A DNA stretch of 64,000 nucleotides from Patescibacteria group bacterium UBA4787 (GTDB taxonomy: Bacteria > Patescibacteriota > Patescibacteriia > UBA2591 > UBA4787), in contig DHGX01000003.1 of NCBI GenBank assembly GCA_002402995.1, forward strand, positions 3,765 through 67,764. Direction: 5' to 3'. The position numbers and the translations under genes were made by a program. Below, piece after piece: positions 42,767-44,785 of the stretch (position 1 is its first letter; each line of letters opens with the position of its first letter). The notes beneath the pieces were generated by a model. The model was not told where the DNA came from. It ran no database searches and was given only the letters and a program-made list of their open reading frames with translations.

Positions 42767-44785
42767 ATGAAGGACAGAATCGCCAAGGCCGCCATGCGCC
42801 TGGCCGAAGCTCTGCAGTCGGGCATGGAGTTCAAGTTGCAAGACTTGTCTCTGAAGCTCGGCGTGAGCAAGGAGATTGTTCGTAAAGGTGTTGACCAGAT
42901 GAGGGCAAACGGAGTCAACATCGTGGCTGATGTGTCGAACGAGTCGATCAAGCTCGTCAAATCTTCTCAGTCGGAGAAGGACGTGAAGTCATTGTCTCCG
43001 GTTTTCGGAAACAGAAAAAGGATTCTTTTGATGTCCGATCCCTTTTTGGGCTCGAAACTTCAGCAGAATTCTTTGACCCACGCTGTGGTTAAGTATGCCG
43101 AAGGATTGGGTATCGACTTCGCAATTTTATTGGGCAACATGATTGCCGGCAAGCCGACCGCCAAAACCAAGCAGCATTATTTCCTTCCGGATACCGAGGA
43201 GCAGATTCAGTACGCCCGCGAAAATTGGCCGAGAAGTGACAAGTTTAAGACTTACGTCATCAACGGGCCGTCGGACATCGGTTCAGGCAAAAACGTTGCC
43301 GAAGAGCTCGCTGCCAGTCGCGATGATCTGGTCGCGCGCAAAGATCTCTTTTCCGAGTTCGACATTGACGGCGTCAAACTGATCGCCGCCCATTCCAAGA
43401 AGGGCGGACCAGGAGCCTACACCCTTTCGTATCCGGTGGAGAACCTGGCTGCAAGTCAAGCCGAAATTTCCAAGTGGCGTCATACTGGTCGCCAGAGCTT
43501 CCAGATCATGATCGTCGGCGGACATTTCGTCGGTATGCATCAGCCTCCGCAGAAGGAAGGCGGCTACCACCTGATCTCTGTTCCCGGACTCTACAATCCC
43601 AGCGATCTGATGGACGGGGAAAAGAAGATCGGTTCGCCGATGGTAGGCTTCCAAGTGCTGGACTTGATCTTCGACAACGAAGGCAAATTCGTAAAACCCG
43701 TCGTCACCTGCTACAACCTCTCCGGTTACACCATCGAGAGGGACTATTTAGAAGAGATGCCGAAGCGTCAGCCGGGTGCCGAAGGCGAGCCGACCGAAGA
43801 CCAGAAGAAGGTGCTCGATTATCTGCTGTTGGGCTCCACTTCGACCGGCGCTTTGTCGCGGCTTTTGGGAAAAGACAAGGCCTATGTGGAGGAGACCATT
43901 ACCGGCCTCCAGAAGCTGGGCTTTGAGCTCATCCGCGATGAAGCTAAAAGGGCATGGAAGCTCATCCGTGATCGACGGGTTGAATTTAAGCCGATCAACA
44001 TACCCTGGACAGAGATCGAGCGCAACTATGTGGAGTATCTGCTGTACGGAGATACCCAGCTGGGCTCAATCGAGGATCGGCCGAAGCTCATTCCGAAGAT
44101 CTACGCGTTGGCTTTGCTCCGCAAGGTCATGAAGATCTTCCATCTCGGGGACATGACAGATGGCACCGGTGTTTACCGAGGCCATCACATGTATCTGAAC
44201 GCTGTCGGCGCGGACGCGCAAAAGGAAAAGGCGGAGAAAATTCTGGTTCCGATCTACAAGAACGAACCCGACATGCCGCCCACCGAAGCGATCTCCGGCA
44301 ACCACGATACGGTGTATTATTCGTCCGCTGGCCATGACGTCGTGAGAGCTATCTGCGCTGGCGTTAACGCCCTAGTCGGCCGTAAAGTGATGACCTATTT
44401 AGGAAAGGACGGCCAGAACACGACTTGTGGCAGACAGCCCAAAAAGATCTCCATTCGCCTCCTTCACCCCGATGGCGGAATCCCGATGGGTCGCAGCTAT
44501 CGGCTACAGGAAGTGATTCGAAGACTGGTCTCGGTTTTGGTCTGCGAAGAGGATGATCTTCACAGTTTGGCGCTGGGCCACCTTCATGTCTCGTTATTCA
44601 TGTTGTATAACGGCATCGCCGGTTTCATGGTACCGGGCATGCAAGGCGAAACCGACTACCTCATCAGGAAGGGGCTGAAGCCTCAGATCGGATGCTGGCT
44701 GGTCCGGGTTTGTCTGGACAACGTCGGTGACGTGATCTCGGTTACCCCGGAGTATTTCGACCAGAAGGAACTCGAGCGCATGTAA
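42767..44785 (+). CDS. Compositionally foreign (~55% GC, rough estimate) 672-aa protein: tandem (HTH-like + calcineurin-like metallophosphoesterase) x2, first phosphoesterase half degenerate
   Basis: Strong RBS (aaaggaggt) before ATG. Second half has MPP motifs YGDTQLG / HLGDMTDGTG / ISGNHD / LALGHLHVS. First half has only degenerate counterparts (SDPFLG, LLGNMIAG, INGPSD). Each half is preceded by an HTH-like ~60-aa segment. Own promoter and perfect terminator. Confidence 0.75.
   Translation: MKDRIAKAAMRLAEALQSGMEFKLQDLSLKLGVSKEIVRKGVDQMRANGVNIVADVSNESIKLVKSSQSEKDVKSLSPVFGNRKRILLMSDPFLGSKLQQNSLTHAVVKYAEGLGIDFAILLGNMIAGKPTAKTKQHYFLPDTEEQIQYARENWPRSDKFKTYVINGPSDIGSGKNVAEELAASRDDLVARKDLFSEFDIDGVKLIAAHSKKGGPGAYTLSYPVENLAASQAEISKWRHTGRQSFQIMIVGGHFVGMHQPPQKEGGYHLISVPGLYNPSDLMDGEKKIGSPMVGFQVLDLIFDNEGKFVKPVVTCYNLSGYTIERDYLEEMPKRQPGAEGEPTEDQKKVLDYLLLGSTSTGALSRLLGKDKAYVEETITGLQKLGFELIRDEAKRAWKLIRDRRVEFKPINIPWTEIERNYVEYLLYGDTQLGSIEDRPKLIPKIYALALLRKVMKIFHLGDMTDGTGVYRGHHMYLNAVGADAQKEKAEKILVPIYKNEPDMPPTEAISGNHDTVYYSSAGHDVVRAICAGVNALVGRKVMTYLGKDGQNTTCGRQPKKISIRLLHPDGGIPMGRSYRLQEVIRRLVSVLVCEEDDLHSLALGHLHVSLFMLYNGIAGFMVPGMQGETDYLIRKGLKPQIGCWLVRVCLDNVGDVISVTPEYFDQKELERM

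Follow-up and report, generated by a model that had tools for sequence, protein, structure and literature searches.

The gene at positions 42767..44785 of the forward strand of the window (the whole stretch of 64,000 nucleotides of Patescibacteria DNA that was analysed) probably encodes a resident tandem nuclease that resembles DP1 and belongs to a conserved family, and its GC-rich allele is best accounted for by displacement in place. The gene and its protein of 672 aa, which begins at an ATG, are here called X. The protein is organised as a winged helix, a degenerate phosphoesterase domain (PDE*), a second winged helix, and a phosphoesterase domain (PDE) of the active type. An earlier note, made from the sequence alone, had regarded X as a recent island acquisition.

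The foreign appearance of X, on which that note relied, was borne out by measurement. The GC content of the gene is 53.8%, compared with 39.3% for the remaining window, close to the approximate 55% and 37% that had been estimated. The 31 other ORFs of at least 200 aa average 0.377 in GC3 (sd 0.039), and X reaches 0.686, which corresponds to z = 7.8. The anomaly is flat along the gene (0.62-0.79 from the first codon to the last) and is confined to the ORF, with sharp edges at its ends. The codon usage had been called foreign-looking, and AAG indeed accounts for 72% of its synonymous choices versus 22% in the comparison, ATC for 69% versus 19%, and CTG and CTC together for 55% versus 12%. Tetranucleotide distance, a check that had been proposed, also places X as an outlier (0.58 versus 0.24 +/- 0.046). 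Since the ribosomal protein gene L19 does not have this bias, it is not the optimal codon set of the host; LepA lacks it as well, and an explanation by translational optimality was rejected. A tie with the second GC outlier of the window, the ORF at 56576-59665, was likewise rejected, as this ORF encodes a secreted HExxH protein unrelated to X. Raised GC is not restricted to this genome. The GC3 of X exceeds the mean of its neighbours in all six lineages examined, by 28 points here and by 4 to 9 points elsewhere, and its total GC is above that of the flanks in all 11 loci tested.

X is equipped with its own expression signals. Two -35-like boxes of overlapping period, TTGACA(AT), are found just after the right inverted repeat of a GIY-YIG element (42682..42698, forward strand), with perfect TTGACA at 42682 and at 42692-42693 and a similar doublet in a sibling species. 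The boxes had been noticed earlier as promoter-like; no consensus -10 was scored at the canonical spacing from them. In five other lineages, the corresponding position upstream of the X orthologs carries a canonical promoter similar to TTGACA-17-TATAAT, and these orthologs also have a ribosome-binding site of their own. Here, the ribosome-binding site AAGGAGG (42752..42758, forward strand) is located 8 nt 5' of the ATG and is kept in L001 and other lineages, and an intrinsic terminator hairpin with an 11-bp stem and a T-tract (44793..44819, forward strand) is identical in the sibling; both are as the earlier note had them. The terminator is part of a stretch of about 59 nt (44788..44846, forward strand) that also comprises an AT-rich stretch ending TTGCTAATAT. 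It is 100% identical between the window and the sibling, and is better conserved than any flanking coding sequence (80-88% nucleotide identity between genes of the window and the sibling).

X occupies the ancestral chromosomal slot of its family and is a resident gene, not an island gene. Its upstream neighbour, conserved across lineages, has a PolyA_pol head and an HD domain, as in CCA-adding enzymes (40742..42388, forward strand). The ancestral downstream neighbours, an RluD-like pseudouridine synthase and guanylate kinase (here a single 500-aa ORF) and rplS (L19), are encoded at 53713..55818 of the same strand, now about 9 kb from X. The gene order CCA-X-RluD-Gmk-L19 is encountered in L005-L008, L014, and L017, and the order SecD-SecF-GT4-CCA-X is seen in L020 and L022, as in the window. 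In the Patescibacteria lineages that share the slot, X is only 30-35% identical. The ratios of X identity to CCA identity are 0.61-0.73 for pairs that include the window, within the 0.50-0.85 of all other pairs. Of the features by which an island gene is recognised, X displays the deviant composition, but neither presence/absence variation nor an unshared position.

The space between the CCA gene and X is taken up by a small GIY-YIG element (42394..42681, forward strand) with 18-bp perfect terminal inverted repeats, whose ORF (from 42413) contains a frameshift in a run of seven A residues. Downstream of X, an insert of about 95 nt with a hairpin begins near 44855; it is absent from the sibling, and the upstream slot of the sibling holds a sequence different from the GIY-YIG element of the window. 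Given that the flanking elements differ between the siblings, they are later, variable insertions. The bracketing by mobile elements that had been described is real, but X was not dropped in between them. A GIY-YIG element also occurs near the X locus in L008.

The copy of X in the sibling species is found at the same chromosomal place, is equally GC-rich, and is 81% identical. The dS between the two copies is 0.74, compared with 0.55-0.81 for the neighbours, while dN/dS is 0.17, with every domain below 0.4. X is under purifying selection and has diverged in step with its neighbours since the sibling split, and its GC-rich composition predates this split. A simple two-state estimate at 4-fold sites gives a GC4 of about 0.78 at the time of the split and 0.68 now.

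The most economical account of this composition would be displacement in place and amelioration. The resident X allele would have been displaced by a xenolog from a GC-richer relative before the siblings separated, and slow amelioration of the GC-rich xenolog would have followed. In such a case, the term horizontally acquired, as used in the earlier note, may still hold in a narrower sense. Three points speak against displacement. Firstly, neither the protein search nor a metagenome scan turned up a donor. Secondly, homologous replacement is mechanistically awkward, since a GC-rich donor would be divergent. Thirdly, the mild GC3 excess of X in each of the six lineages hints at a cause intrinsic to the gene.

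This last point leads to an alternative that is possible, though clearly the less probable: X descended vertically, and a gene-specific process raised its GC content in place. This process might be selection acting on the mRNA or DNA of X, or else GC-biased repair or gene conversion, if the neighbouring homing-endonuclease elements repeatedly break the locus. Such a drive would fit the higher GC of X in all lineages and loci compared, the unremarkable distances of X to other orthologs, the lack of a donor lineage in databases, and the GIY-YIG elements adjoining X here and near the locus in L008. However, the shift in composition is confined to the ORF and uniform along it, and no such shift is seen at the 3' end of the ancestral CCA gene, at a distance of 380 nt. 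The two-state estimate also fits the plain amelioration of a foreign allele. To our knowledge, a GC3 shift of approximately 30 points in a single gene has no precedent.

Displacement in place, our preferred explanation, concerns the allele; the protein itself is a fused pseudo-dimer of two modules, each consisting of a basic winged helix and a metallophosphoesterase, of which the N-terminal module is dead and the C-terminal module is of the live type. The first winged helix (aa 1-63, 42767..42955, pI 9.8) matches HTH_11 and BirA-repressor models and has the secondary structure H-H-H-E-E in the AF2 model. It is followed by PDE* (aa 83-320, 43013..43726), which was delimited by the motif table and profile alignment. 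The second winged helix (aa 344-399, 43796..43963, pI 9.5) matches winged-helix domains of the Csa3, CasR, MarR, and AdcR types and is likewise present in the AF2 model, with three helices and two strands, and the DP1-like phosphoesterase domain of the active type (aa 421-665, 44027..44761) was recognised by its motifs, its profile match to DP1, and its fold; all four are on the forward strand. The earlier note had already read X as two copies of this arrangement. Within the single sequence, the similarity between the halves is weak (BLASTP E = 0.015), but with family profiles the duplication is decisive, with hhalign aligning the N-half to the C-half over 308 columns at E = 2.4e-59. The AF2 model, built from a 32-sequence alignment (pLDDT 86.9, pTM 0.85), has the same order of domains.

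The motifs of the two phosphoesterase copies are also as had been described. PDE* reads SDPFLG (aa 90-95), GNMIAG (aa 123-128), and NGPSD (aa 166-170), and so its metal ligands are gone; the motif table shows that they are absent from the N-terminal phosphoesterase across the whole family. The C-terminal domain has D429-T-Q431, GDMTDG (461-466), GNHD (511-514), H567, and GHLH (604-607). These are the five motifs of the calcineurin-like metallophosphoesterase superfamily (Pfam PF00149 / PF12850; DxH, GDxxDR/G, GNH(D/E), H, and GxH on a beta-alpha-beta-alpha-beta sandwich fold), save for the glutamine in motif I. In the family at large, the C-terminal copy is canonical and keeps the full two-metal site. 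X deviates at motif I, which is DTQ in X and its sibling, while the other 30 aligned members have the histidine. Equivalent substitutions of this histidine in other metallophosphoesterases, such as lambda phosphatase and LpxH (H10N), strongly reduce activity. The glutamine of this lineage has therefore probably weakened the catalysis of X or changed its metal preference.

In this genome, X is the ortholog that represents an uncharacterised family of proteins conserved in Patescibacteria (Parcubacteria-type lineages). An exhaustive search of about 15 billion proteins returned about 1080 relatives at E < 1e-3, 46 of them at E < 1e-30. Long relatives (650-880 aa) span the whole query, and short ones (270-480 aa) align to the C-half; single-module relatives occur in both bacterial and archaeal viruses. 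Apart from the sibling copy, no relative closer than 34% identity was found among these proteins or in a metagenome scan. A word-indexed homolog search, whether started from the single sequence or the 32-sequence alignment, returned only X and its sibling copy, and a tblastn search of GenBank phages found one archaeal virus. In a neighbour-joining tree of the tandem forms, the branches are too long to place the window lineage reliably. Pfam, NCBIfam, PHROGs, and PADLOC hold no model specific to the family, and the single sequence matched only weak winged-helix or metallophosphoesterase fragments in them. PF00149 is matched by 25 of 32 family members, with X itself below the Pfam reporting level. 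HTH_11 is matched by 13 of the 32 (best 1.8e-9), and X scores 18.4 bits against a cut-off of 25; for the BirA repressor domain, X scores 20.5 against a cut-off of 70. Our literature search found no description of a bacterial or phage winged-helix phosphoesterase resembling DP1, nor of a CPR family of such a kind. The statement that X fits no characterised family therefore stands as far as dedicated models go, yet X has many relatives, and its nearest characterised one can be named.

Among characterised proteins, DP1, the proofreading exonuclease of archaeal PolD, is nearest to the active domain by both sequence profile and fold. When the family profile was compared with PDB sequences, DP1 was matched over the entire PDE domain at E = 2e-12, whereas Mre11 reached only 4e-4. 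The HMMER alignment to 5ihe_A pairs profile positions 425-629 with chain residues 206-450, including the blocks GDVxDGxGxYxGQ, DQ.E, and GH.HV...Q.QT.F. The NCBIfam DP1 model matches 23 of 32 family members, with a best E of 5e-13. Neither a phmmer search of the PDB with the single X sequence nor a search with PDE* alone gave a match.

Given this kinship, and judging from kinship only, X is best read as a predicted pseudo-dimeric two-metal nuclease directed at nucleic acids. Its C-terminal domain would hydrolyse phosphodiester bonds at nucleic-acid ends, in the manner of a DP1/Mre11-type exonuclease. The single-module relatives in viruses presumably homodimerise, and the dead domain of X would replace the second subunit of such a dimer; the two winged helices would position DNA or RNA, or dock a partner. 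Hints about the substrate are divided. The kinship to DP1 and Mre11 points to DNA, while the placement among the genes for the CCA enzyme, RluD, TrmD, and L19 points to RNA 3'-end metabolism. Since X has its own promoter and terminator, the synteny with RNA genes may be mere inherited gene order.

It is unlikely that X is primarily a winged-helix transcription factor whose phosphoesterases sense or hydrolyse a small phosphoester, such as a cyclic nucleotide or dinucleotide, similar to enzyme/repressor fusions of the BirA, NiaR, and NadR type. This would agree with the HTH_11, BirA-repressor, MarR, TrmB, and Csa3-type matches of both winged helices, with the IMG name of one family member ('biotin operon repressor/predicted phosphodiesterase'), and with fold matches that include the small-molecule phosphodiesterases MJ0936, YfcE, and Rv0805. 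The region upstream of X in both siblings also has a doubled TTGACAAT box. However, in a search for an autoregulatory operator, this box was not seen upstream of X in other lineages, and it is a putative operator only. Moreover, the nearest relatives by sequence and fold are nucleases (DP1, followed by Mre11/SbcD) and not small-molecule enzymes, and the viral single-module relatives are located in replication or morphogenesis modules.

With X taken as a predicted nuclease, it is tempting to speculate that, outside the archaea, the DP1/B-subunit phosphoesterase has its closest kin in the winged-helix phosphoesterase family of Patescibacteria and of bacterial and archaeal viruses and, separately, that the GC excess of X reflects locus-specific GC-biased repair tied to homing-endonuclease elements. 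The two together are quite improbable. If the first were true, these minimal bacteria would possess, in the tandem protein, a 3'-5' exonuclease for editing or end trimming, either stand-alone or associated with a polymerase. The pairing of a live and a dead copy would then be an independent replay of the transition from an active DP1 to an inactive B-subunit. It would also bear on the source of the PolD proofreading module, which might lie in a viral or bacterial nuclease.

The original proposal, a recent horizontal gain of a novel accessory gene of phage, plasmid, or defence origin that was inserted between two GIY-YIG mobile elements, is now very improbable. The GC3 excess, the foreign codon usage and tetranucleotide profile, the sharp and uniform limits of the shift, the mobile elements on both sides, and the single-module relatives in viruses would all suit a recent arrival. 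They are outweighed by the orthologs in the same slot in distant lineages, and by the sibling, in which X is present (the presence/absence check that the earlier note had called for) with the same GC and a neighbour-like dS. The flanking elements are later arrivals, and no near-identical or GC-rich donor was found in any collection searched. The evidence does not point to a plasmid or defence origin. In PADLOC-DB v2, X has only weak Csa3/CasR matches at the level of the winged helix (E = 3e-4 to 4e-3), and its neighbours (SecDF, glycosyltransferases, and the CCA enzyme) are not defence genes. X thus belongs to a conserved family in a housekeeping (translation/RNA) neighbourhood, a kind of outcome that the earlier note itself had named as contrary to its proposal. 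An assembly chimera, in which a GC-rich fragment was joined into an AT-rich contig, would produce the abrupt GC change at both ORF ends, but its likelihood is negligible, as an identical protein (P0001) is encoded on independent contigs, identical junctions with the CCA gene are found on contigs from three independent sequencing runs and on a 262-kb contig (the independent assemblies L002-L004 among them), and a second species, sampled at another site, shares the arrangement.

What looked like a foreign island gene thereby becomes a conserved Patescibacteria protein with a testable prediction, namely that it is a metal-dependent nuclease in which one site is dead and the other live. Such a prediction is of use because much of the conserved gene content of this phylum lacks an assigned function. 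The locus is also one where composition says 'foreign' and synteny says 'resident', and the choice between displacement and a gene-specific GC drive bears on how compositional detectors of horizontal gene transfer are read in streamlined genomes. Finally, owing to its specific kinship to DP1, the family can serve as an outgroup from bacteria and viruses for the PolD proofreading subunit and for the B-subunits of eukaryotic polymerases. So far, the DP1/B-subunit phosphoesterase has been treated as an archaeo-eukaryotic replisome component.

The closest known system is DP1 itself, the small subunit of archaeal PolD (PDB 5IHE, 6HMF, and 8PPT). The phosphoesterase domain of DP1 is the 3'-5' proofreading exonuclease of PolD (PMC7544198). 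The C-terminal PDE of the X family shares with that domain the five calcineurin-type motifs and two longer signatures, one surrounding motif II (GDVxDGxGxYxGQ...DQxE) and one following motif V (GHxHV...Q.QTxF). The differences are considerable. DP1 has an OB-fold domain N-terminal to its PDE, whereas X has a winged helix before each PDE and no OB barrel in the AF2 model. X is a tandem duplication of a dead and a live copy, and the histidine of its motif I is replaced by glutamine. Its match to PRK04036 covers only aa 454-516 and, at 18.5 bits (E = 7.6e-4), is far below the 445-bit cut-off. PolD is considered specific to archaea (PMC6741145). PolD and DP2 are archaeal, whereas the family of X is bacterial and viral, and none of the large ORFs scanned in the 64-kb window was recognisable as DP2-like.

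The B-subunits of eukaryotic DNA polymerases alpha, delta, and epsilon are inactivated homologs of DP1 that have an OB fold and bind the zinc-finger CTD of the polymerase. No sequence similarity to these subunits was detected for the N-half of X, and the dead copy of X is fused to a live one. The similarity of the family to Mre11/SbcD is much weaker than that to DP1. The SbcD model matches three of 32 members, weakly, no capping domain was recognised in X, and no Rad50/SbcC gene adjoins X in the window or in eight related loci.

The C-half of X has single-module relatives among the metallophosphoesterases of phages and archaeal viruses, some of which are annotated as 'DNA polymerase II small subunit' or 'DNA repair exonuclease'. 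They include phrog_7339 (E = 1.5e-5), the BFVD entries A0A3G8F5R1 and A0A516LV74 (BFVD TM 0.85 at 24% identity), and ORF43 of Halorubrum virus BLv36 (29% identity). None of these is characterised, and they consist of one module in viral genomes, whereas X is a duplicated, chromosomal gene whose synteny extends across cellular lineages. As regards the history of the allele, the nearest parallel is xenologous gene displacement in situ, as reportedly set out by Omelchenko et al. in Genome Biology in 2003. X differs in that neither a donor nor a donor clade can be pointed to, and its tree is too deep to show a misplacement. It is similar in that a conserved gene string retains its resident member in position, while the sequence of that gene has a foreign signature.

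The open reading frame at 42767..44785 (+) encodes, from an ATG start, a 672-aa protein called X here. The earlier note credited this gene with its own expression signals: a ribosome-binding site (AAGGAGG, 8 nt before the ATG, +), a strong intrinsic terminator (44793-44819, +) and two perfect TTGACA boxes upstream are indeed present, although a promoter scan detected no consensus -10 box spaced canonically from them. The compositional anomaly was confirmed. The GC content of X is 53.8%, versus 39.3% in the remaining window, and reaches 0.565, 0.363 and 0.686 at codon positions 1, 2 and 3; the neighbouring genes have a GC3 of 0.34-0.38, and relative to the 31 other ORFs that reach 200 aa (mean GC3 0.377, sd 0.039) X is an outlier with z = 7.8. 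Since GC3 stays flat across all 56-codon blocks of the gene (0.62-0.79), the anomaly is ORF-wide and ORF-limited. Codon shares are shifted (AAG 72% versus 22%, ATC 69% versus 19%, CTG+CTC 55% versus 12%), and the tetranucleotide distance between X and the remaining window is 0.58, against 0.24 +/- 0.046.

A second compositional outlier is the 1029-aa ORF at 56576-59665 (+), with a GC3 of 0.55 and a codon bias leaning the same way (AAG 46%, ATC 46%). It carries a signal peptide and an HExxH motif (VLAHEIAHAW), and has no Pfam or PDB sequence match. The giant ORFs at 2396-10321 and 10502-14917 (+; 2641 and 1471 aa), with Big_1, Big_2 and CarboxypepD_reg-like domains and a slightly elevated GC of 0.41-0.48, are probably surface proteins.

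In single-sequence searches, X gives weak matches to a BirA/HTH_11-type winged helix (aa 16-55), a Csa3/CasR-type winged helix (aa 330-386) and a phosphoesterase fragment (aa 425-534; phrog_7339 'DNA repair exonuclease', E = 1.5e-5; PolD small subunit, E = 7.6e-4), and phmmer found no PDB match. A word-indexed search of 5.8 billion clusters returned, besides X itself, only a single protein with 81% identity from a related species, a Hainich groundwater Patescibacteria MAG (hereafter the sibling). Exhaustive HMMER searching yielded 1080 representatives with E-values below 1e-3, of which 474 also fall below 1e-10 and 46 below 1e-30, all with at most 34% identity to X. Relatives fall into two length classes, one of ~650-880 aa spanning the whole of X and one of ~270-480 aa matching its C-terminal half only.

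An AlphaFold2 model built from an alignment of 32 long, tandem members is confident (pLDDT 86.9, pTM 0.85). It comprises a basic winged helix (aa 1-63, pI 9.8), a disordered linker (aa 66-80), a degenerate phosphoesterase domain (aa 83-320), a second basic winged helix (aa 344-399, pI 9.5) and a live phosphoesterase domain (aa 421-665). Across the alignment the motifs of the C-terminal phosphoesterase are canonical (SDTHxGS, GDxxDG, G(N/S)H(D/E), HPxGG, GHLHVA), while the N-terminal one is degenerate in 32/32 members (SDTxLG, GNxxAG, IxGxxD); Gln replaces the motif I His in two of the 32, X and its sibling counterpart. In a profile-profile comparison, the N- and C-terminal halves of the family match with 100% probability (E = 2.4e-59, 308 columns, winged helix included); on this match, a tandem duplication within the family can be regarded as certain. 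The N-terminal half on its own has no PDB match. The motifs quoted in the earlier note all occur where it placed them, and its structural reading, a doubled HTH and phosphoesterase with a dead first copy, is correct.

Tandem members are publicly named 'hypothetical protein', 'predicted phosphodiesterase', 'calcineurin-like phosphoesterase domain-containing protein' or 'biotin operon repressor/predicted phosphodiesterase', and their named hosts are Wildermuthbacteria, Parcubacteria, Nealsonbacteria and Tagabacteria MAGs. One member is probably not from a Patescibacterium, because its contig carries PTS and Trk genes. No paper describing the family was found in the literature. X belongs to an uncharacterised tandem winged helix-phosphoesterase family with a DP1-like active domain, conserved in Patescibacteria and lying within a known superfamily.

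The gene order of the sibling locus (L001), namely GT4, a PolyA_pol+HD gene of CCA-enzyme type, X and GT2, is exactly that of the window, where the CCA enzyme gene lies at 40742..42388. Between the two species X is 81% identical in protein sequence and its neighbours 85-88%; dS is 0.74 for X and 0.55-0.81 for the neighbours, dN/dS is 0.17 versus 0.07-0.13 (below 0.4 in each X domain), and divergence at 4-fold sites is 0.31 versus 0.36 pooled. GC4 is 0.68 in X versus about 0.49 in the neighbours. Therefore, the common ancestor of both species already possessed X in GC-rich form, and all four X domains have been under purifying selection since the split.

More distant loci extend this picture. 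The string CCA enzyme, X, RluD-like pseudouridine synthase, guanylate (or cytidylate) kinase and L19 occurs at L005-L008, L014 and L017, and is visible from X onward at L010 and L012; L020 and L022 have SecD, SecF, GT4, CCA enzyme and X, the window's own upstream order. In five other lineages the orthologs have their own TTGACA-17-TATAAT-like promoter and AAGGAGG. Identity among orthologs in the conserved slot is only 30-35%, and the ratio of X identity to CCA-enzyme identity is 0.61-0.73 for the window lineage versus 0.50-0.85 for other lineages, with no extra divergence of X; rapid evolution is a property of the family as a whole. The window's RluD-Gmk-L19 genes (53713-55818) are parted from X by a ~9-kb block (about 44946-53700) that holds GT2, a methyltransferase, tRNA-Ser, a 170-aa ORF without matches, GNAT, PNPOx-like, GT4, MurJ, LepA and bPH_2. 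At least its first gene, GT2, is also found in the sibling, and the block is an insertion predating the sibling split. X is thus a resident gene, not an island gene. At 53713-55215 (+), an S4 + pseudouridine synthase (RluD-like) and guanylate kinase share one ORF of 500 aa, whereas all related loci have two separate adjacent genes for them; the two may truly be fused here, or a stop codon may have been lost.

The earlier note described X as bracketed by two GIY-YIG element families. Upstream, an element at 42394-42681 encodes a small GIY-YIG nuclease ORF (from 42413, about 87 aa) with perfect 18-bp inverted repeats, CCCCTCACTTGAAAAAGA, on both sides. Its frame breaks at an A7 run near 42503, so that its N-terminal portion, with the GIY-YIG domain, and its C-terminal portion are in different frames, which could reflect a pseudogene, a homopolymer sequencing error or slippage. 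The slot is bordered by CCCCTCACTTGAAAAAGA in both species, but the nuclease ORF occurs in the window only, and the sibling slot (L001 about 9640-9990) holds unrelated sequence. Downstream, an insert of about 95 nt (44850-44945) with a CCCCGTAATACAACTTCGATGGGG hairpin is missing in the sibling; it adds 18 codons to the 5' end of the apparent GT2 ORF, and in the sibling the start of GT2 corresponds to the internal Met (MIDLEQ). Because the upstream content differs and the downstream insert is absent in the sibling, the bracketing elements are, judged from these two sequences, later arrivals.

The inverted-repeat motif is matched six times overall, where chance would give 0.07. With 2-3 mismatches it forms two further pairs, at 55229-55377 and 55939-56037, that enclose ~100-150 nt without a nuclease ORF and adjoin rplS and tRNA-Leu/Ile genes; these short pairs resemble miniature forms derived from the GIY-YIG element. 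Directly 3' of X, ~59 nt (44788-44846; L001 about 12023-12085) comprising the terminator hairpin and TTTTAATTTAATTTAATTTTGCTAATAT are 100% identical in both species, while the surrounding genes share just 80-88% DNA identity. This stretch may be a constrained terminator plus the next gene's promoter, or a small RNA.

Recent acquisition of a phage, plasmid or defence gene is therefore unsupported, the slot being conserved and X already GC-rich in the ancestor shared with the sibling. The composition is still best explained by a foreign origin of this allele through displacement in place: the resident allele would have been replaced by a xenolog from a GC-richer relative before the sibling split and then ameliorated, a scenario to which we give about an even chance. 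The sharp, uniform and ORF-limited anomaly favours it, and a two-state estimate from 4-fold sites puts GC4 near 0.78 at the split, a plausible donor value. Counting against displacement, a donor so distant in composition fits poorly with the mechanism of homologous replacement, and no donor lineage was found among about 15 billion proteins or in a metagenome scan. A gene-specific drive towards GC is a more doubtful account. It gains from the GC3 of X exceeding the mean of flanking genes in 6/6 lineages with gene tables (L001, L005, L008, L010, L020, L022), by 4 to 9 points elsewhere, and from a total GC above the flanks in 11/11 loci; however, the CCA gene shows no such effect at its nearby 3' end, and we know of no precedent for a 30-point shift in a single gene. 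The orthologs also exceed flanking genes in GC at codon positions 1 and 2, and their GC3 is the highest of the locus in three of five other lineages. Other or mixed scenarios take up the rest. A host 'optimal' codon set is rejected since the bias is absent from the L19 and LepA genes, and chimeric assembly is excluded by the recurrence of X with the upstream CCA enzyme on contigs of three independent runs and on a 262-kb contig, and by the same arrangement in a different species.

In X the N-terminal site is dead and the C-terminal two-metal site nearly complete; the protein bears DP1-type signatures, and the gene has its own promoter and terminator. The C-terminal domain may be a metal-dependent phosphodiesterase acting on nucleic-acid ends, a DP1/Mre11-type exonuclease. 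Many superfamily members form homodimers; the dead domain would stand in for the second protomer, and the single-module viral relatives are presumably homodimeric. The two basic winged helices would bind nucleic acid or a partner. The motif I Gln, fixed in X and the sibling, probably lowers activity or alters metal preference, judging from equivalent substitutions in other metallophosphoesterases. Of the five window tRNA genes (18707-18781, 46470-46558, 55831-55912, 56035-56109, 56235-56311), the 3' CCA is encoded in three (Arg, Ile, Val) and missing from the other two (Ser, Leu), so the genome depends on the CCA-adding enzyme adjoining X. A tRNA or RNA 3' end, in trimming or end-healing, is an attractive substrate because of these two genes and the string TrmD, CCA enzyme, X, RluD, Gmk and L19; DNA is equally possible because of the kinship to DP1, Mre11 and viral proteins.

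All single-module relatives placeable in genomic context are viral: one on a phage-like contig with DnaB, helicase and queuosine genes (L009), one on a contig with a tail sheath gene (L018), one on an IMG/VR contig, and one in Halorubrum tailed virus BLv36 (L019; OQ850970.1 24880-26040, 386 aa, 29% identity). The latter sits in the head-morphogenesis region, between the portal and major capsid genes, an unexpected location for a nuclease-type enzyme. Among viral structure predictions, uncharacterised phosphoesterases of phages match best, and several of them bear the name 'DNA polymerase II small subunit'.

Three mutually independent lines of evidence point to the phosphoesterase domain of DP1, the small subunit of archaeal family-D DNA polymerase (PolD), as the closest characterised relative of the X family. 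In eukaryotic B-subunits, the counterpart of this domain is inactivated. Against PDB sequences, the family profile matches DP1 over the entire phosphoesterase domain with E = 2e-12, and Mre11 with only 4e-4. DP1 is also the commonest enzyme family among NCBIfam matches to the 32 tandem members (23/32, best 5e-13), ahead of YfcE (8), SbcD (3) and Mre11 (1). The alignment of the family profile with DP1 takes in an extended block around motif II (GDVxDGxGxYxGQ...DQxE) and another after motif V (GHxHV...Q.QTxF). X is not a DP1 ortholog: its score is far under the family cut-off, it has no OB fold and its architecture differs. PMC7544198 assigns the 3'-5' proofreading exonuclease of PolD to the phosphoesterase domain of DP1. 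The partner of DP1, the catalytic subunit DP2, is archaeal, and the kinship of X to DP1 is confined to the phosphoesterase domain.
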